From assembly GCA_035476575.1 (NCBI GenBank), contig DATILL010000150.1:5139-69138 (forward strand): 64,000 nucleotides of DNA, written 5' to 3'. The notes beneath the pieces were generated by a model. The model saw nothing but the letters and a program-made list of their open reading frames with translations. It had not been told where the DNA came from and did not search any database. This DNA is from Mycobacteriales bacterium (GTDB lineage: Bacteria; Actinomycetota; Actinomycetes; Mycobacteriales; JACQDL01). Of the stretch, positions 3,126 to 57,364 are shown one piece after another. A program made the position numbers and the translations under genes. The number at the start of each line of letters is the position of its first letter. Position 1 is the first letter of the stretch.

Positions 3126-7604
<4,479 letters not shown>

Positions 7605-12915: not shown

Positions 12916-13574
12916 TCGCCGGCTCGGGTGCGGGCGGCGGCGAGTTCATGCTCGGCGGTCACCTCACCGGTACAGGCCGCACCCAGGAGGGCGTAGGCCA
13001 GGTCCGGGCCGCCGAGGGCATCGGTCAGCCACCACGCCGCCATCACCACCGCGACGCGAGCGACCACTGACAGGGCCTGTTCGCGTTCGGTCATGATCCG
13101 AAGCGCCGCCAACCGCTGAGGAGCCGGCACCCGACGAACACCGCGCGGCTCACGGACGGCGCTGCACGACAAGCTCGGCGAGGCGCTGTACCTCGTCCAG
13201 CAGATCGACCGGTCCGCGGACTGACGCTCGGCAGCCGGCCAGCACGGCCGGCCCGCGTGACGCTGGGTCGTCGACATCGAGGTGGATGTCGAGGTACGAG
13301 TAGCGCTGGCCGATCGCCCGACCAGCGCACCGTCGGCCCGGCCCGTCATGTCGGTCCATGTGACCCTGCGACAGGCCGTGTTGGCTCGCATGTCGCCGAG
13401 CCAAATGGGGGTCGGTCTGGCACTAATAAATGATCACCGGGGCTGAAGGCGCGACGGTCTCCGGGGTGAACTCGACGAAGTACTTGCCGGCGGGTGAACA
13501 GGTTGGCGCCGTCGGCCTGGGTGAGGAACCCCTCCAGCGGCGGGCGTGGCGCACACCCGCTTCAACCTGTGCTG

Positions 13575-13937
13575 GCAAGGCGGTCAGTGCTACCTCGAAG
13601 TTCACTCGTCAGACCGAAACTTCGCTGGCTCTGGTCGCGTCGCGCCCGCCTGCGCGCCCATCTGGAGCAGTGCACCGCCCGCGCCCAGGCCCTCAGCATC
13701 AAGCTCAGTCCGGACGCCTTCGTCTTCTCACCCGCACCGGACGGCACCGAGCCGACGAAGCTCGACACCGTCACCCAGAAGTACGCCAGGATGGCCGCTA
13801 AGCTCGGCATCGACACCCATCTGCACAACCTGCGCCACTACTCCGCCACCGAGCTGATCGCCGCCGGTGTCGACATCCGCACCGTCGCCGGCCGCCTCGG
13901 CCACGGCGGCGGTGGAGCCACCACCCTCCGCGTATAC
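13575..13937 (+). pseudogene. tyrosine recombinase/integrase, C-terminal fragment cut by IS insertion
   Basis: ..DAFVFSPAPDGTEPTKLDTVTQKYARMAAKLGIDTHLHNLRHYSATELIAAGVDIRTVAGRLGHGGGGATTLRVY, then the IS inverted repeat. The N-terminal domains are absent and there is a frame change near 13630. Confidence 0.65.
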
Positions 13938-15353
13938 GGGCTCTTCGCATCTGGCTGGGTAGTGTGTTCAGGCTGCTACTGGTTGTGAGGTGGTGGTTGT
14001 GACGGTGTGTAGCCGTTCGGGGCGGGTGGAGCGGGAGGCGGTGTAGTGGGAGCGGCGTTGCTGGTTGGTGACGTCGGTCAGGCCGAAGGCTGTTCTGTAG
14101 ACGGGCTTGATGAGGTGGTTGACGCCCTCTGCGGCGGTGTTGCTGTGTCCGGTGAGCACGGCGCGGGCGGTCTCGGCGCGCCGGGTGGAGACGGTCTCGG
14201 CGAGGGTCTGGATCTCCGGGACGGTGGCGCCGGTGGTGGCGGCGAAGTCGAAGAACGTCTCCAGCGCCGTGGTGACCTGCTCGCGGGTGGCAGCGAGGCC
14301 GGTGCGGTTGGGGGAGAGTTTGGCCTGGTCGCGGAGTGGTTCCTTGGCGCGCCAGGCGGCGCCGGTCTGCTGGCCGTCTTCGCCGAGGTCGGCCAGCGCG
14401 CACAGCAGCTTGTGCCGGGCGGTGGTGGACAGCCGCTCCTGGCCGCGGCGGAGCAGGTTCTTGATGGTGTGCTCCAGGTCACCGGCCCGTTCGCGGCGGG
14501 GGTAGGTGAGGCGGCGGCGCACGTCACCGACGGTCTTGTTGGCCAGCTGCGCCAGGTGGAACGGATCGACGACCAGCCGCGCGTTGGGCAGCAGGCCGCT
14601 GCCGAGGACGGCGGACTTGTACACCGTGGACATGTCGATGCTCACCCAGCGGATGCCGGCCCGCCAGGCCGGGTCGGTCCCGGCCAGCCAGCCGGTCACG
14701 CCGGCCTTGGCCCGGCCCTGGACCTGGCCGAGCAGCCCGTGCCCGCCCGCGGGGCCGACGAGCACACTCTGCCAGCGGTCGGCGTCGGCCACCCACGCCC
14801 CGCTGGCCGCATCGCGGTGGTACAACGGCTTGCCACCTCGATGGTCGCCGGTCCCGAGCACCTCCACCGGCGGCAGCAGCCCGCTCACCGATCGGCGGAC
14901 TCGGGTGGCCGGGCCAGCCTCGGCAGGACAGGCGCCCCCGCAGGCCTCGGTCCGGGCGCCGCTGTCGGTCTCGGCGTCGCCGTCGCTGTCGGTCTGGGCG
15001 TCGGCCGTGGTGTCGGTGAGGTGGATGCCCGCCTCGGCGGCCACCCCGGACACCACGCCTGCTGACCGGATGCGGTCCTCACGTGCACCGTCCAAGACCC
15101 GTCAACCTCCCGTTCCACGACCTCGACCTCGACTCCGCTCAGCCCCAGCAGCTCGGCCAGTGCAGCACCCTGCGACACGCGCCCGCCCGCCCATCCGCCC
15201 GATGATCCTTGATCTTGTCGGACGAAGATCATCCTGGATGGGTGGGCGCGTTCCTGTCCGACACGCCAACACGACACCAACCACAGACCATGACAACCGG
15301 CGATCACTACAAGGGTGCGACCGATTACAGAATCCAGCTCACTGCGTAGAGCC
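13938..15353. mobile_element. ISL3-family insertion sequence (about 1.4 kb), probably defective
   Basis: Imperfect terminal inverted repeats, about 22/34 matched: GGCTCTTCGCATCTGGCTGG.. at 13938, and the reverse complement of 15353 is GGCTCTACGCAGTGAGCTGG.. No matching 8-bp target duplication (CGTATACG vs ATCAGGCG). Confidence 0.7.
13968..15095 (-). CDS. ISL3-family transposase (likely N-terminally disrupted)
   Basis: 375-aa ORF: ..GLLGQVQGRAKAGVTGWLAGTDPAWRAGIRWVSIDMSTVYKSAV..VVDPFHLAQLANK..NTAAEGVNHLIK. The expected N-terminal piece (LLGLSGVEVEVVEREVDGSWTVHVRT) lies in another frame at 15096-15250. Confidence 0.75.
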   Translation of the reverse strand: MDGAREDRIRSAGVVSGVAAEAGIHLTDTTADAQTDSDGDAETDSGARTEACGGACPAEAGPATRVRRSVSGLLPPVEVLGTGDHRGGKPLYHRDAASGAWVADADRWQSVLVGPAGGHGLLGQVQGRAKAGVTGWLAGTDPAWRAGIRWVSIDMSTVYKSAVLGSGLLPNARLVVDPFHLAQLANKTVGDVRRRLTYPRRERAGDLEHTIKNLLRRGQERLSTTARHKLLCALADLGEDGQQTGAAWRAKEPLRDQAKLSPNRTGLAATREQVTTALETFFDFAATTGATVPEIQTLAETVSTRRAETARAVLTGHSNTAAEGVNHLIKPVYRTAFGLTDVTNQQRRSHYTASRSTRPERLHTVTTTTSQPVAA

Positions 15354-15375
15354 ATCAGGCGGGGGGAGTCGCCCG

Positions 15376-15552
15376 GTGCCCAACGTGCTAGGACCCGTCC
15401 GTCCATTCGCCGCGACGCTCGGGGTGCGGCCCATCGAGCTGGGGAAGCACGACACGAAGGCGTCGAAGGTCACGAAGATTGAGGCGACCAAGCAGAATCT
15501 CGACAACAAAGAGGTCCCGGACACCATCCAGAAGGTCGAGACTGACACCTGA
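15376..15552 (+). CDS. candidate graspetide (ATP-grasp-modified RiPP) precursor peptide
   Basis: GGGGGAG-N8-GTG 15376. 58 aa: MPNVLGPVRPFAATLGVRPIELGKHDTKASKVTKIEATKQNLDNKEVPDTIQKVETDT. 21 of the last 35 residues are T/S/K/D/E. Sits directly upstream of an ATP-grasp ORF. Confidence 0.5.
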   Translation: MPNVLGPVRPFAATLGVRPIELGKHDTKASKVTKIEATKQNLDNKEVPDTIQKVETDT

Positions 15553-15578
15553 TGCGTCGGCCCTGAACGGAATGTGCA

Positions 15579-16226
15579 ATGAACCGCTTGGACGGAACAG
15601 TGCTCTTGCTCAGCGGCACCGACGATCACACGACCGAGGCGGTCAACGAGGCTCTACGGCGTCTCGGCGCCAAGGTGGCGCGGATGGATGCCGGAGATTT
15701 TCCGCAGTCGATGACCCTCGTAGCGAAAAGCGCCGAGTCGGGAACCTGGTCAGGTCGCCTCGTCAGCACGCAGGGCTCGATCGAGTTCCACGTCGCTGCA
15801 CGCGTAGGCCTGACGACGCCTCGAACGCTGGTCACCAACGACTACACGGCGTTGCGAGACTTCGCCGCTGAGATCGACGGGCCGCTCGTATGCAAACAGA
15901 TGTCGGCACTAGTTCTGTATGACCACGGGAAGCCACGTCTGACCTACACCACGCGCGTCGAGGTCGCCGACGTCAGCCCGACAGATCTCGCGGTGACCGC
16001 GAACCAGTTTCAGGAGGTTCCCAAGGCTCGCGAGGCGTGGGTCATAATGGTCGGCGAAAGACCATTGGCGGTGGCCATCCAAGCTGAGTCCGACGAGTCG
16101 TACGTGGACTGGCTACCGGCCGCATCTGACGGCGGGGCACGGCGCGGCCGGTGTCCCGGAACGGGCGCCGTTCGACCGTATCGTCGCCACCGCCGCTATC
16201 TCCGCCGTGCCGCCCGCCTGGATTGA
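15579..16226 (+). pseudogene. ATP-grasp ribosomal peptide maturase, internally deleted and 3'-truncated
   Basis: The N-terminus TVLLLSGTDDHTTEAVNEALRRLGAKVARMDAGDFP and GLTTPRTLVTND..VCKQMSALV..LTYTTRV..ANQFQEVPKAREAWVIMVG are family-like. About 60 aa seem missing after ..SIEF. Homology ends at ..ESYVDW (about 16110) and the ORF tail is out-of-frame methyltransferase sequence. Confidence 0.6.
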
Positions 16227-16803
16227 TCAGCTCACGCCCGGCGGGATGATTCTCACAGACCTGCGCGGCGAGCTGGCCAGCAGCCTCATCGCACTCCGCA
16301 AGACCGCGCCCGACACGGTCTCCGGCCGTTTCCTGTCGGTGCCCGGGCACTTCATGTGGCTCCGCGCCGAAATCGACAACCCACTTCGCGACGGCGGCAG
16401 CTACCTGATGGAAATCAACATCGGCAACCCACGCCATACGGCCACCGCCGTGGGACCGGATATTCTCGACGACCCGAACCTGCGGTTCCTCGTTCAGCGC
16501 CGGGCCCCGCGGAGCCAGAGCATTTACCGCATCGACTGTCATGGGCGCGACGTGGTCGAGGTCAACGCGGGTCAGTCTCGGGCGCATCTCGACACTGCCC
16601 CGCTCGGCGACGGCCTACACGAGGTCACTGAAATTGGACCGGACTGCGCGTGGAAATGCGTCGACTCCACCATCGACCTGTGGAACCACCTCGGCCGTCC
16701 CGTCCGTGAACGGTTCGGGCTCACTGCCACAGCCGACGGCACCCACATCCTCTGGCTCGACCAACCCGGCACCAACCACGCCTGGCTGCTACCGAACCCC
16801 TAA
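16114..16803 (+). pseudogene. PIMT-like O-methyltransferase, C-terminal half only
   Basis: This frame gives ..HLTAGHGAAGVPERAPFDRIVATAAISAVPPAWIDQLTPGGMILTDLRG.. through stop 16803. The SAM-binding N-terminal half is missing, and the only in-frame start is GVG-internal (GTG 16207). Confidence 0.55.
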
Positions 16804-16808
16804 CCCTA

Positions 16809-16839
16809 GCCCGGGACTTTCAGACGAGCGTTCCCGGGC
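16809..16839. terminator. hairpin in convergent gap (GCCCGGGA-N15-TCCCGGGC)
   Basis: 8-bp perfect arms between the methyltransferase remnant (+) and the DUF3107 gene (-). No U-tract. Confidence 0.3.
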
Positions 16840-16920
16840 AGAGCAACCACCGCCAGCGCCGGATGGGCCGACGGCTGGGCGCCCGCGACCCACCTGTGGG
16901 CCAGTGCCCGTGCCGAGGGG

Positions 16921-17151
16921 TCAGGCGCCGGCGACGAAGCCGACCCGGCGCAGCTCGGTCTCGGCGATCTCGACGTAGGCAATGATGCCGGCCTGCACGA
17001 TGATCCGGCGGCCCTTGTCGTCCACCAGCCTGAGCACGCCCTTCGGATCCTGCAGCGCCTCGGCGACCATCTGCTCGACCTCGGCGGGGTTCTGCGCGCT
17101 CTCGAAGACGATCTCGCGCGGCGTGTGCTGCACGCCGATCTTGACCTCCAC
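16921..17151 (-). CDS. DUF3107 family protein (TB9.4-like)
   Basis: 76 aa from GTG 17151, with AAGGAGG upstream: VEVKIGVQHTPREIVFESAQNPAEVEQMVAEAL..LRLVDDKGRRIIVQAGIIAYVEI. Confidence 0.8.
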   Translation of the reverse strand: MEVKIGVQHTPREIVFESAQNPAEVEQMVAEALQDPKGVLRLVDDKGRRIIVQAGIIAYVEIAETELRRVGFVAGA

Positions 17152-17219
17152 CGCGGCTGCCTCCTTGCTGGGCTGTTGTGGCAAGGCTAGCGTCCCCACC
17201 GCGATGTCCACATCGCGGC

Positions 17220-17855
17220 TCAGCAGGCGCGGCGCAGCAGCTCCAGCGTCCGGGACCGCGCCGTGGCGTAGTCGACCCCGTACGACCTGAGCAGGTCGTA
17301 CGCCGGCCCCCGCCGACCGGCGAGGATGGCCAGGAGCAGGTGCTCGGTGCCGACCAGGTGGTGGCCGAGCTCGCGGGCCTCCCTGATCGAGCGGGCCAGC
17401 ACCTGCCTGGACTCCGGCCGCAGCGGCACCGGCCCGCGCCAGCGCCGCCAGCGCCGGATCCGGCCGCCCCCGGCGAAGGGATGCCGCCGGCCCCGGTTCC
17501 GCCGCCGGCCCGCGGGCCGGACCGGCACCAGCGCACCCGGCCCGAACGACTCCTCCGCCTGCCGGACGACCGCCCGCAGATCGATCCCGAGGTCGGCCAG
17601 CGCGGCCGCGTCGGCGTCGTCCAGGCCAGCCCGGCGGACGCTCTCCGAGACCCCGTCGACCAGCTCGCGGACGGTGTCCCCGGCGACGACGCCGAACCCG
17701 GCGAGCACCCGCCCGGCCAGGCACTCCGGCTCGGCCAGCATGCCCAGCAGCAGGTGCTCCGGCCCGATGCCGCCAGCGCCGAGTCGCATCGCCTGGTCGC
17801 CAGAGCCGAGGACAACCCGCCGGGCATGGGCGGTGAAGCCCCGCACCACGATCAT
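17220..17855 (-). CDS. Clp N-terminal (Clp_N repeat) domain protein
   Basis: 211 aa with two Clp_N-like repeats (IGPEHLLLGMLAEPECLAGRVL; VGTEHLLLAILAGRRGPAYDLL). ATGA overlap with the upstream HTH gene. Confidence 0.75.
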   Translation of the reverse strand: MIVVRGFTAHARRVVLGSGDQAMRLGAGGIGPEHLLLGMLAEPECLAGRVLAGFGVVAGDTVRELVDGVSESVRRAGLDDADAAALADLGIDLRAVVRQAEESFGPGALVPVRPAGRRRNRGRRHPFAGGGRIRRWRRWRGPVPLRPESRQVLARSIREARELGHHLVGTEHLLLAILAGRRGPAYDLLRSYGVDYATARSRTLELLRRAC

Positions 17856-18070
17856 CGCTGCCTCGCATGCTTCTTGTGCACTGCCTGGCGGCTCACGCCG
17901 AGCGCGTCGGCGACCTCCTGCCAGGACCAGCCCAGCTCCCGGGCGTTGCGGACCTGGAGCACCTCAAGCTGCTCCAGCAGCTTGCGCAGGGCCGCGACGG
18001 CGCGCAGCCCGATCGCGGGATCTCGCCCGCCAGCAGCGGTGGCGAGCGCGGTTGCCTTCACATCAGCCAT
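17852..18070 (-). CDS. small helix-turn-helix protein
   Basis: 72 aa: ..NARELGWSWQEVADALGVSRQAVHKKHARQR. Translationally coupled to the Clp_N gene. Confidence 0.65.
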   Translation of the reverse strand: MADVKATALATAAGGRDPAIGLRAVAALRKLLEQLEVLQVRNARELGWSWQEVADALGVSRQAVHKKHARQR

Positions 18071-18105
18071 GCTGTCAACCTACGTTGACGGCGTGAGGCT
18101 GTCAA

Positions 18106-18801
18106 CTAGAGTTGACGAGGGTCGGTCTGCAACGGGAAGTTCGAGATGCCCCGCCAGGCCAGCGACTCGATCAGCCGGACCGCCTCCTGCTTGGGCACCT
18201 CGCTGGCCCGGTCCAGCCACCACCGGGCGGCGATCTCCGACATCCCGGTCAGCCCGACCGCCAGCAGCTCGGCACGGGGCCGGTCCAGCCCGGTGTCAGC
18301 GGCCACCGTGTCAGTGATCGCCTCGATCAGGCCGCGCTCCATCCGATCCACCTTCTCCCGCACGGCCGGGTCGTTGCGCAGGTCGGACTCGAAGACCAAC
18401 CGGAACGCCTCGCTCTCGGAGTCGACGAAGTCGAAGTAGGCCGAGACCGCGTTGTGCACCCGGGCCTTGTTGTCCGTCGTACCGGCCATCGCCTGGCGCA
18501 TCCGCTCCACCAGGTCCTCGGCGTGCGTCTCCAGCAGCGCGAGGTAGAGGTCGAGCTTGCCCGGAAAGTGCTGGTACAGCACCGGCTTGGAGACCCCGGC
18601 GCGCTCGGCGATGTCGTCCATCGCCGCGGCGTGGTAACCGTGCGCCACGAAGACCTCGCGGGCGGCCCGCAGTAGCTGCTTGCGGCGGGCGGAACGCGGC
18701 ATCCGGACGGTCCGGGCGTGCAGCGGCTCGGCGGGCGGCGGCACGCTCGACGTCGGTGCCGGGGTGGTCGCGGGGGTGGGTGCTGCCGGCGTCGCCGTCA
18801 T
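18106..18801 (-). CDS. TetR family transcriptional regulator
   Basis: 231 aa: RRKQLLRAAREVFVAHGYHAAAMDDIAERAGVSKPVLYQHFPGKLDLY. GGAGG upstream of ATG 18801. Confidence 0.85.
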   Translation of the reverse strand: MTATPAAPTPATTPAPTSSVPPPAEPLHARTVRMPRSARRKQLLRAAREVFVAHGYHAAAMDDIAERAGVSKPVLYQHFPGKLDLYLALLETHAEDLVERMRQAMAGTTDNKARVHNAVSAYFDFVDSESEAFRLVFESDLRNDPAVREKVDRMERGLIEAITDTVAADTGLDRPRAELLAVGLTGMSEIAARWWLDRASEVPKQEAVRLIESLAWRGISNFPLQTDPRQL

Positions 18802-18870
18802 GCCACCTCCCTCCCGTTTTGCCCATTCGTCCCGCCGAACTTTACCCGGGGTAGGAGCGGCGGCGCCCGA

Positions 18871-19053
18871 TCAGCGCCAGTCGTCGTCGTCGATCGGCAC
18901 CTCAGCACGCTGCTCGGCGGCGTCGGCGGGGTCGACGTCCCAGGGTACGTCGGGAGTGGAGACCGGGGTGCGCGCCTCGCCGGGCTCGGGCACGACGTCG
19001 GCATGCTGCTCGGCCGCATCCTCGGCCGGGCTCTCCCATGGTGTCTCGGTCAT
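18871..19053 (-). CDS. small acidic hypothetical protein with internal repeat
   Basis: 60 aa, with PAEDAAEQHA / PADAAEQRAE repeats. Same strand as its neighbours. No family recognised. Confidence 0.35.
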   Translation of the reverse strand: MTETPWESPAEDAAEQHADVVPEPGEARTPVSTPDVPWDVDPADAAEQRAEVPIDDDDWR

Positions 19054-19089
19054 CCACCCTCCTCAGTGTCCTGGCCATTGTGCACACCC

Positions 19090-19998
19090 TCAGCGGGGCA
19101 GCGCCGGCCGGTCGGCGGTGCGCAGGCCGGCGAACAGGTCACCATGCTCCTCGACCCGCGCCAGCACCTCACCTGCGGTGAACCGCAGCGGCCGGCCCGA
19201 CTCGACCTCCGCCCAGCGCAGCGGGGTGGAGACGGTCGGCTGAGCCACGGCCCGCAGCGAGTACGGCGCGACGGTGGTCTTGGCGGCGTTGTTCTGGCTC
19301 CAGTCCACGAACACCTTGCCCGGCCGCAGCGACCGGGTCATCCGGGACAGCACCAGCGTCGGATGGGTGGCCTCCAGCCGCTGGGCCAGGTCCTTCGCGT
19401 ACGCCGAGGTCGCGGCGTCCGGGGCCGGGGCGATCGGCGCGTAGACCTGCATGCCCTTGCGGCCGGAGGTCTTCGGGTAGCCGGTCAGGCTGTCCCGGCC
19501 GATCTCGGTGCGCAGCAGGCAGGCGACCTCGGCACACTCCACAATGGACGCTGGCGGGCCGGGATCGAGGTCGAACACCAGCAGGTCCGCCGGGCGCGCC
19601 TCACCGCGCGGGCCGACCGTCCACTGTGGAACGTGCAGCTCCAGCGCGGCCAGGTTCGCCAGCCAGACCAGGGTGGCCAGGTCGTCGCACACGACGAAGT
19701 CGATCTCGTCCCGGTTCATCGAGCTGCCGGGCACCGGCAGCCGGACCGTGCGCACCCAGCTGGGGGTGTGGGACGGCTTGTTCTTCTCGAAGAAGGACTG
19801 ACCGGTCACGCCGTTCGGGAACCGGTTCATGGTGAGCGGCCGGTCGGCCAGGTGCGGCAGGATGTACGGCGCGACCCGGGAGTAGTAGTCGAGCACCTCG
19901 GCCTTGGTGAAACCGGCGTCCGGATACAGCAGCTTGTCCAAGTTGGACAGTTGCAGGGTGCGGCCGTCGACGGTGACCTGCACCCGCTGCGGGCTCAA
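19090..19998 (-). CDS. NHEJ polymerase/primase (LigD polymerase domain protein)
   Basis: 302 aa from TTG 19998 (GGAGGT 5 nt upstream): LQLSNLDKLLYPDAGFTKAEVLDYYSRVAPYILPHLADRPLTMNRFPNG. Confidence 0.85.
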   Translation of the reverse strand: MSPQRVQVTVDGRTLQLSNLDKLLYPDAGFTKAEVLDYYSRVAPYILPHLADRPLTMNRFPNGVTGQSFFEKNKPSHTPSWVRTVRLPVPGSSMNRDEIDFVVCDDLATLVWLANLAALELHVPQWTVGPRGEARPADLLVFDLDPGPPASIVECAEVACLLRTEIGRDSLTGYPKTSGRKGMQVYAPIAPAPDAATSAYAKDLAQRLEATHPTLVLSRMTRSLRPGKVFVDWSQNNAAKTTVAPYSLRAVAQPTVSTPLRWAEVESGRPLRFTAGEVLARVEEHGDLFAGLRTADRPALPR

Positions 19999-57287: not shown

Positions 57288-57364
57288 CGCGGGGTGGAGC
57301 AGCTCGGTAGCTCGCTGGGCTCATAACCCAGAGGTCGGAGGTTCAAATCCTCCCCCCGCTACCA
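57288..57364 (+). tRNA. tRNA-Met (CAU), initiator-type features
   Basis: The cloverleaf folds by eye. Anticodon loop CTCATAA, three G:C pairs in the anticodon stem (GGG/CCC), C1 unpaired with U72, T-arm GGAGG-TTCAAAT-CCTCC, and an encoded CCA. Confidence 0.95.

Follow-up and report, generated by a model that had tools for sequence, protein, structure and literature searches.

A probable relic of a graspimiditide cluster at the edge of a probable ISL3-family insertion sequence

The window, as we call the whole 64,000-nucleotide stretch analysed here, very probably holds a pseudogenised graspimiditide (group 13 graspetide) cluster at positions 15355-16803, in the order precursor, ATP-grasp ligase and aspartyl O-methyltransferase, judging from its sequence and that of its relatives. 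The three genes (A 15355-15552, B 15579-16110, M 16111-16803) lie on one strand in the A-B-M order described for all graspimiditides but fuscimiditide, and the cluster is a non-functional relic of a known system, with all three genes damaged. Aligned to an intact relative, locus L089, it shows four lesions: a loss from the precursor at the edge of an insertion sequence (IS), a 64-codon deletion in the ligase, a small loss in the ligase QxWVPK motif and a deletion of 712 nt. The breakpoints were mapped on the DNA of L089 and on the proteins of L002, L004 and L001. A sequence-only reading of this DNA had proposed a relic of an aspartimidylated, fuscimiditide-like A-B-M cluster, and that proposal is upheld by profile matches, synteny in relatives and the graspimiditide literature. 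With 1,300-1,400 clusters of this RiPP type already catalogued, the window locus, being one more dead copy, is in itself of little weight. Its features are as follows.

15355..15552, + strand: 3' part of a graspimiditide precursor gene, orthologue codons ~23-87 and the stop (homology to L089, precursor alignments, omega)
15400..15411, + strand: RPFA leader motif, residues 9-12 (R and P invariant, F nearly so, in the precursor alignment)
15448..15549, + strand: 34-residue core from the His to the C-terminus, H25..T58, HDTKASKVTKIEATKQNLDNKEVPDTIQKVETDT (family pattern, alignment)
15502-15507, + strand: D43-N44 loop, predicted aspartimide site (Asp invariant in the precursor alignment; published stem-loop rule)
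15579..16110, + strand: ATP-grasp ligase remnant, 177 of ~322 codons (TIGR04187, PF21068, tblastn with intact ligases)
15780..15800, + strand: junction of deletion 1, approximate (global DNA alignment to L089, junction sequences, protein alignment)
16017..16020, + strand: one or two codons missing in frame from the conserved Qx(x)W(V)PK (alignments; L089 nt 3656-3661 without a window counterpart)
16110..16111, + strand: junction of deletion 2 (L089 alignment, junction sequences, reading frames)
16111..16803, + strand: remnant of a PAMT/PIMT-like methyltransferase, Rossmann end and RiPP-specific C-terminal domain (TIGR04188, L001 alignment)

The ligase remnant starts at an ATG at 15579, 26 nt past the precursor ORF, which opens a 215-codon ORF; its last part, up to the stop at 16226, is no longer in the ligase frame. 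Its N-terminus is of the MvdD pre-ATP-grasp type (PF21068, E 3.5e-6), a match that bears out the peptide-modifying ATP-grasp N-terminus recognised earlier at this distance. TIGR04187 (GRASP_SAV_5884) is matched over profile positions 1-64 and 128-236 of 312 (E 1.2e-32; 113 bits, cutoff 350), and the remnant is thus homologous to the family without being an intact, full-length member. Both breaks already suspected from the letters, about 60 aa missing after ..SIEF and everything missing after ..ESYVDW, reappear in the profile coordinates and the orthologue alignments. At deletion 1 a net 192 nt, or 64 codons (L089 residues ~66-130), are gone in frame, joining ..GSIEF to HVAARVG.. in the peptide. 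One or two codons including the Trp are gone where relatives read QAWVPK, QEWVPK or QELIWPK and the window QFQE-VPKA. Deletion 2, with a 2-nt microhomology (GG), removed 712 nt (L089 nt 3754-4465), joining ligase residue ~240 (..VDW) out of frame to methyltransferase residue 156 (GYRPHL..); the last ~82 ligase codons are absent. A search for ligase homologues in a 5.8-billion-sequence database at E 1e-10, a threshold that was too strict, recovered nothing beyond the window's own protein.

The methyltransferase remnant is read in another frame, in which 16108-16803 specifies its C-terminal 231 residues (PF01135, E 1.2e-10), 63% identical to the L001 enzyme over residues 163-393. The match to TIGR04188 spans profile positions 155-362 of 363 (E 4.1e-44; 151 bits, cutoff 380), so that the combination of Rossmann and C-terminal domains that makes up an intact enzyme of this type is incomplete here: the first 155 codons were removed by the 712-nt deletion, which left the remainder out of frame, and the remnant has no SAM-binding motif I, which in L089 reads LEIGTGTGY and stands at residue 113. 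The WxxxGxP motif of the C-terminal domain, described in a review as a hallmark of graspimiditide methyltransferases, is kept as WNHLGRP (16681-16701). PF01135 and TIGR04188 thereby support the earlier recognition of the C-terminal half of a PIMT-like enzyme in another frame, and the profile coordinates and the orthologue alignment agree with the loss of its SAM-binding half. Both enzymes of the window match their RiPP families only in part and are incomplete beside intact orthologues, and the missing pieces were found nowhere else in the 64-kb window.

The precursor gene is damaged as well. A GTG at 15376, 22 nt past the IS end (15353), opens a 58-codon ORF running to 15552, and the earlier description was exact as to the distance, the peptide and its composition (T/S/K/D/E make up 21 of its last 35 residues). 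The view that this ORF looks intact has to be given up. Homology to L089 begins right after the IS end (window 15356 corresponds to L089 nt 2796, codon 23), and the orthologous precursors, which are 84-93 aa long, start ~22-30 codons further upstream and have conserved DPLFP and LLPL(S/C) motifs at the N-terminus. The window precursor is 5'-truncated, without a complete leader, a start of its own or the DPLFP and LLPL motifs, and the GTG encodes a Val inside the precursor, within the sequence RPV(A/P)NV. The GGGGGAG is present at 15362-15368 as had been noted, although 7 nt rather than 8 from the GTG, and it is no Shine-Dalgarno sequence, as it corresponds to conserved Gly-Gly-Gly codons in the orthologues. 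Omega values of 0.10-0.27 against relatives indicate purifying selection on the precursor. Neither Pfam nor NCBIfam (at E up to 10) has a match for the 58-aa peptide, which is uninformative because the intact orthologous precursors match nothing either: no NCBIfam precursor model matches five of them (E up to 10) or that of L089 (E up to 0.01). The relevant NCBIfam precursor model is presumably TIGR04186 (ATP-grasp target RiPP precursor).

The window RPFA is the counterpart of RPFG, by which graspimiditide leaders are recognised. This role of RPFG is described for ThfA, which remains functional after removal of its 20 N-terminal residues. Since the truncated window peptide keeps RPFA and the complete core, it might likewise be modifiable if expressed. 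It could then be argued that the 58-codon ORF is a working precursor gene, its transcription starting in the IS end or reading through from upstream and its product being modified in trans by an intact ligase and methyltransferase from elsewhere in the genome, given that its core is full-length, typical of the family and free of stops and frameshifts, and given the GGGGGAG-N7-GTG arrangement. That reading is very unlikely, however, as the GTG and the GGGGGAG are internal codons in all orthologues, which indicates no selected start, and the N-terminal motifs found throughout the family are lost. A promoter scan of 15150-17000 found no promoter-like site, and the 64-kb window has no second ligase or methyltransferase. 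Likewise, no second methyltransferase is named for the window's metagenome-assembled genome (MAG) among the best 120 of 180 relatives, many of which carry no source name. We retain the reading of a pseudogenised cluster. Two elements lie upstream of it.

13494..13938, + strand: C-terminal fragment of a tyrosine recombinase (integrase) (PF00589 Phage_integrase, E 7.6e-9, profile 95-157/172)
13939..15353, - strand: probable ISL3-family insertion sequence, 1415 bp (NF033550 transpos_ISL3, E 2.9e-35; PF01610, E 4.9e-32, at 13968-15095)

The left IS end interrupts the integrase fragment just past its ..LRVY motif. The element has imperfect terminal inverted repeats of ~31 bp (13939-13969 and 15323-15353, 21 of 31 positions matching by eye), and its transposase is split over two frames, with the N-terminal LLGL..V.V..VE motif on an other-frame ORF (14885-15406, - strand). 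ISL3 elements are expected to produce an 8-bp target duplication. No target-site duplication was found at the IS ends, and the flanks are unrelated, with an integrase 3' end on one side and the middle of a precursor on the other. A join through a repeated IS could give the same picture, and the window sequence comes from a MAG, so that the cluster might be intact in the organism and the deletions and the IS junction might be metagenome assembly artefacts (chimeric joins at repeated IS copies, collapsed or mis-joined reads). Yet identical 58-, 215- and 185/207-aa ORFs occur in NCBI, JGI, Logan and ENA assemblies (contigs of 114,041, 113,992 and 71,419 bp), and the 215-aa ORF covers both ligase junctions. 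Comparable deletions in relatives also recur in independent assemblies, as in L001 and L088, which are 99.5% identical and share the same deletion, and the IS is single-copy within the window by self-BLAST. An assembly artefact is thus slightly less probable even than a precursor modified in trans, and genuine decay of the cluster remains the preferred explanation.

An exhaustive precursor profile search yielded 28 representatives. Members of the precursor family stand upstream of ligase-methyltransferase pairs in L002, L004, L008 and L089, intact relatives in which the A-B-M order is kept, and in L083 a precursor lies upstream of an intact ligase and the start of a methyltransferase, where the contig ends. 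The small ORF thus has homologues that adjoin the same enzymes in relatives, and its core, which the sequence-only reading could match to no graspetide core, is no orphan: its family numbers at least ~25 clusters when grouped at 50% identity. That it is a chance ORF next to unrelated enzyme stretches that were never a RiPP cluster is hardly credible, and is already refuted by conserved synteny and substitution pattern (homologous peptides precede these enzymes, in the same position, at six or more further loci; omega 0.1-0.3), even if spurious ORFs are frequent in high-GC DNA and a profile match is lacking for the peptide, as it is for its intact orthologues.

The intact orthologous cluster that had been expected in a relative was found in L089 (Logan assembly of ERR15009267), which encodes an 87-aa precursor, a 322-aa ligase and a 397-aa methyltransferase. 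The ligase covers TIGR04187 from profile position 1 to 312 with 331.5 bits, below the cutoff of 350, and the methyltransferase covers TIGR04188 from 11 to 362 with 318.7 bits, below the cutoff of 380. Compared with L089, the precursor and the remnants of ligase and methyltransferase have omega values of 0.27-0.32, and the window remnants carry no further stops or frameshifts, from which we infer that the decay was recent relative to the divergence from known relatives. The relic thus leads to an expressible intact cluster. It also points to a graspimiditide subfamily with a strictly 34-residue core, of which we know no characterised member and whose sequences come for the most part from Pseudonocardiaceae-like soil metagenomes. 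Exact-sequence look-up of P0001 and P0007 gave no record.

The core of this subfamily follows the pattern H-D-T-x2-[TS]-x7-T-x4-D-[GN]-x4-D-x7-D-[TS], and the distance from the His to the end is exactly 34 residues in 21 of 23 family members. Across these 23, the conserved positions, in window numbering, are the donors T27, S30 and T38, the loop pair D43-N44 and the acceptors D49 and D57. The window precursor thus has an RPF leader motif and a core in which Thr/Ser donors form one stem and Asp/Glu acceptors the other, on either side of a loop with Asp-Xaa. The published graspimiditide motif is built alike: its conserved His is followed by the Thr/Ser stem, the loop with Asp-Xaa and the Asp/Glu stem, and Asn is among the n+1 residues that it allows. 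By analogy, the ester pairs are likely T38-D49 and S30-D57, and Asp-Asn is the predicted aspartimide site. The site is Asp-Gly in all four characterised graspimiditides, whereas the Asn of the window sub-branch is an n+1 residue that was predicted before and never characterised. A literature search for the KHDT motif found nothing, and a PDB sequence search with the precursor-family profile and one family core gave no relevant match, the amycolimiditide and fuscimiditide entries not being recovered.

Amycolimiditide (Amycolatopsis cihanbeyliensis), albusimiditide (Streptomyces albus J1074) and SsfA(BM) are graspimiditides with the A-B-M order of the window. They share with it the RPF(G/A) leader, the conserved His and stem-loop layout of the core, the extra methyltransferase C-terminal domain with WxxxGxP and an actinomycete host, relatives being known from Pseudonocardiaceae; unlike them, the window has all three genes truncated and non-functional. 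Graspimiditide precursors have been divided into eight published clusters and, by their leaders, into five subgroups. Fuscimiditide (ThfA/ThfB/ThfM, Thermobifida fusca), with two Thr-Asp omega-esters forming a stem-loop and an aspartimide in the loop, represents the chemistry presumed for the window family, and its leader recognition motif is RPFG where the window has RPFA. It differs in its gene order (B-A-M), in being a singleton in the precursor network and in its ester spacing, which is 3 residues against a predicted 7 in the window, and its core has no detectable sequence similarity to that of the window.

In the ancestral cluster, the ligase would have bound the leader through RPF(A/G), as the characterised relatives suggest, and with ATP would have esterified Thr/Ser to Asp side chains of the 34-residue core to form a stem-loop. 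D43 in the loop would then have been methylated by the SAM-dependent methyltransferase, and attack by the N44 backbone nitrogen, displacing methanol, would have closed the aspartimide. The fuscimiditide methyltransferase acts on the cyclised peptide only. In the window the precursor gene has lost its promoter, its start and ~22 initial codons to the ISL3-type element or to a deletion at its edge. With the precursor 5' end, the ligase segments and the SAM half of the methyltransferase gone, this chemistry is no longer possible at the window locus.

Ligase-centred decay with the precursor, and often the methyltransferase, kept is found in L081, L001 (= L088), L082, L090, P0011 and the window. 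The frequency of such ligase deletions among relatives is a small observation on how these clusters die. Treating the pattern of the ligase always being lost as statistically significant was rejected because of search bias, as a locus came to light only by its precursor or by the C-terminal part of its methyltransferase, so that no losses but ligase-centred ones were visible. Imiditides and type I pamtides, which consist of a precursor and a PIMT-like methyltransferase only, superficially resemble the ligase-less L001/L088 and L082. Their methyltransferases recognise the linear precursor, whereas graspimiditide methyltransferases leave linear precursors unmodified, and in the window, in contrast to imiditides, the methyltransferase too is destroyed. 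It is improbable, if a little less so than the trans-modified precursor, that the decay reflects selection against the cross-linked product or towards two-gene systems of precursor and methyltransferase; if it does, these loci would be a snapshot of graspimiditide clusters becoming imiditide-like. A genome scan with the methyltransferase fragment gave 80 loci, most of which (Streptomyces, Nocardiopsis, Actinoalloteichus) have no ATP-grasp ORF in the flanking sequence retrieved and were set aside as other methyltransferase-associated systems. Within the family, L082 is decayed relative to an intact sister, L083, that is 96% identical to it.

The three remnants keep the gene order precursor, ATP-grasp ligase and methyltransferase, and the locus is by descent a member of the graspimiditides, the aspartimide-bearing group 13 graspetides. 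They abut an insertion sequence whose end at 15353 was confirmed, in the following arrangement:

13494-13938, tyrosine recombinase fragment, C-terminal catalytic part only, stopping at ..LRVY where the IS starts
13939-15353, ISL3-family element, single-copy in the window, with imperfect inverted repeats of ~31 bp
15355-15552, plus strand, precursor remnant
15579-16110, plus strand, ligase remnant
16111-16803, plus strand, methyltransferase remnant

GenBank lists the three remnant ORFs as hypothetical proteins (VLJ59_19885, VLJ59_19890, and VLJ59_19895). The sequence-only reading had proposed an ATP-grasp enzyme paired with a PIMT-like methyltransferase, and the NCBIfam maturase and methyltransferase searches that it suggested identify both. 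The 215-codon ORF starting with ATG at 15579, present as described, matches the Pfam MvdD pre-ATP-grasp domain (PF21068) and, in two pieces (profile positions 1-64 and 128-236 of 312), TIGR04187 “ATP-grasp ribosomal peptide maturase” (E 1.2e-32; 113 bits, cutoff 350). The stretch 16108-16803 is indeed open in another frame, with its stop codon at 16801-16803, and the translation of 16108-16800 matches Pfam PF01135 (PCMT) and positions 155-362 of 363 in TIGR04188 “ATP-grasp peptide maturase system methyltransferase” (E 4.1e-44; 151 bits, cutoff 380).

The 58-codon ORF from the GTG at 15376 to the stop at 15552 also exists as first written, but the precursor is 5′-truncated and not intact as it had looked. 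When 1.84 billion representatives were searched exhaustively with a precursor profile (E up to 0.001), 28 precursor relatives came up, most full-length ones being 82-93 aa, with the pattern DPLFP..LLPL(S/C)..GG..P...PG.LRPF(S/A)ATL.V.PIE.GKHDT...; both the DPLFP and LLPL motifs are absent from the window ORF. The GGGGGAG that had been read as a ribosome-binding site is present (15362-15368), although 7 nt and not 8 nt before the GTG. It encodes a Gly-Gly-Gly conserved in relatives and the GTG codes for Val in the conserved RPV(A/P)NV, so the apparent binding site and start are by-products of coding sequence. The remnant keeps the complete core and RPFA, the counterpart of RPFG, the recognition sequence of the fuscimiditide leader.

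Relatives were found by scanning species-representative genomes with the methyltransferase fragment, by a precursor HMM over the fetched loci, and by ORF inspection. Intact orthologous clusters, which the earlier reading had foreseen, occur in Longispora albida DSM 44784 (L002), a Pseudonocardiaceae MAG (L004), a Pseudonocardiales MAG (L008), and the Logan assembly of ERR15009267 (L089). The last is the closest intact cluster among the matches listed (best 120 of 180) when a large protein collection was queried with the methyltransferase fragment and the genomic context of matches was inspected. It encodes a precursor of 87 aa, a ligase of 322 aa, and a methyltransferase of 397 aa that is 61% identical to the window remnant. 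Its two enzymes span the TIGR04187 and TIGR04188 profiles from end to end, with scores slightly below the curated cutoffs (331.5 bits for the ligase, cutoff 350, and 318.7 bits for the methyltransferase, cutoff 380), and the orthologous precursors match none of the NCBIfam precursor models; thus, the clade would be annotated only generically. Another relative (L085:21-3269) has a different order, in which a gene resembling the methyltransferase (353 aa) is followed by an ORF of 568 aa that lacks any recorded Pfam match, then by the precursor and the ligase start. Most of the genome loci brought up by the C-terminal methyltransferase fragment (L009-L080, mostly Streptomyces, and L005, L007, L010, L019, and L022) lack an ATP-grasp ORF in the fetched flanks and presumably represent other PIMT-like RiPP systems of lanthipeptide, lasso, or imiditide types.

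The damage was mapped against L089 through a global DNA alignment, junction sequences, and protein alignments, which gave four lesions. Homology begins at 15356, codon 23 of the L089 precursor, directly against the IS end, at the cost of the native start, ~22 codons, and all sequence upstream. Near 15780-15800, the ligase has lost a net 192 nt in frame (64 codons, residues ~66-130), and at 16018/16019, 1-2 codons are absent, including the Trp of the conserved Qx(x)W(V)PK motif. Finally, 712 nt is absent at 16110/16111, where only 2 nt of microhomology is seen and ligase residue ~240 (..VDW) is joined out of frame to methyltransferase residue 156 (GYRPHL..). The ligase thereby loses ~82 residues at its C-terminal end, and the methyltransferase its first 155, with SAM motif I among them (LEIGTGTGY, residue 113 in L089). 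In the ATP-grasp fold, the C-terminal region carries Mg-ATP ligands. No copy of the lost enzyme pieces is found elsewhere within the 64-kb window. With all three components disabled, the locus would make no product.

Omega for the precursor is 0.10 against L081, 0.26 against L001, and 0.27 against L089; against L089, it is 0.27-0.32 for the ligase remnants and 0.30 for the methyltransferase remnant (dS ~0.9-1.6 across comparisons). Together with the absence of further stops or frameshifts in ~410 remnant codons, this indicates that all three genes stayed functional over most of the period since the known relatives diverged, and the deletions thus appear comparatively recent.

As the source genome was assembled from a metagenome (“MAG TPA ... 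Mycobacteriales bacterium”), the damage might instead reflect misassembly. This is unlikely, since the same three proteins recur in assemblies from NCBI, JGI, Logan, and ENA, where the contigs differ in length, and the 215-aa ORF runs across both junctions in the ligase. The part of the relic least secure against this objection is the IS junction.

The ISL3 transposase is divided between two reading frames, the element has no target-site duplication, and its flanks are unrelated (a truncated integrase 3′ end and mid-precursor), which suggests an IS-associated deletion or rearrangement, or possibly a join through a repeat. The recombinase fragment and the lower G+C over ~12.2-17.0 kb (~0.61-0.68 in the relic tract vs 0.73-0.80 around it) suggest that the cluster lies within a decayed mobile island. 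DUF308 and BON-domain ORFs lie upstream; downstream on the minus strand (16921-19998) are genes ordinary for actinobacteria, encoding DUF3107, a Clp_N-domain protein, a small HTH protein, a TetR-family regulator, and a LigD primase-polymerase domain protein. The window has a single tRNA, tRNA-Met (57288-57364), which is distant from the island.

Many relatives are decayed, always in the ligase, with the precursor and often the methyltransferase intact:

L081, 300-500, ~27 ligase codons left at the N-terminal end and ~33 at the C-terminal end
L001, 1221-1352, and L088, 3678-3848, ~22 and ~16 ligase codons left in each, methyltransferase essentially full-length
L082, ~975-985, 534-nt ligase deletion relative to L083 (606-1139)
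L090, 2889-3716, without precursor and ligase residues 1-64
P0011, frameshifted precursor-ligase fusion
L003, 643-1867, ligase frameshift

L001 and L088, assembled independently, are 99.5% identical and share their deletion, and L083, intact in the ligase, is 96% identical to L082 with an identical precursor. The L001 methyltransferase (1352-2566) carries an 11-residue tandem duplication (ANGSRTARERL) not in L088 (3848-5029), which may be recent slippage or an assembly difference. Selection against the cross-linked product, or towards two-gene precursor and methyltransferase systems, is a very improbable cause of this pattern, because decayed loci were located via precursor or methyltransferase homology and only ligase-centred losses could appear, an ascertainment bias that probably explains it. 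Graspimiditide methyltransferases do not modify linear precursors, so one surviving without its ligase would be idle.

In 21 of 23 family members, the core that starts at the conserved His and runs to the C-terminus is exactly 34 residues long, an unusually strict constraint (family precursors P0002, P0004-P0029, L002, and L004; window 15448-15549). Its pattern, H-D-T-x2-[TS]-x7-T-x4-D-[GN]-x4-D-x7-D-[TS], fixes Thr/Ser, a loop Asp-Gly/Asn, and two Asp, in agreement with the published graspimiditide design of a conserved His, a Thr/Ser donor stem, a loop with conserved Asp-Xaa, and an Asp/Glu acceptor stem, cross-links being equally spaced on both strands. By this rule, we infer candidate esters T38-D49 and S30-D57 and a candidate aspartimide at D43-N44 (58-aa ORF numbering). 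By analogy with characterised family members, the ancestral ligase would have bound the leader and formed Thr/Ser-Asp omega-esters with ATP, the methyltransferase would next have added a methyl group to the loop Asp once the peptide was cyclised, and the methyl ester would have closed to the aspartimide.

With 1,326-1,432 graspimiditide clusters catalogued, almost all in Actinomycetota, the locus is no new kind of system; its modest novelty lies in a subfamily with a 34-residue core and no characterised member, a loop variant with Asp-Asn, and the availability of an intact orthologue for further work. The literature predicts Asn as a residue that can follow the modified Asp, but the four characterised members are all Asp-Gly. 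The Asp-Asn loop also occurs in the family precursors P0002, P0015, and P0021.
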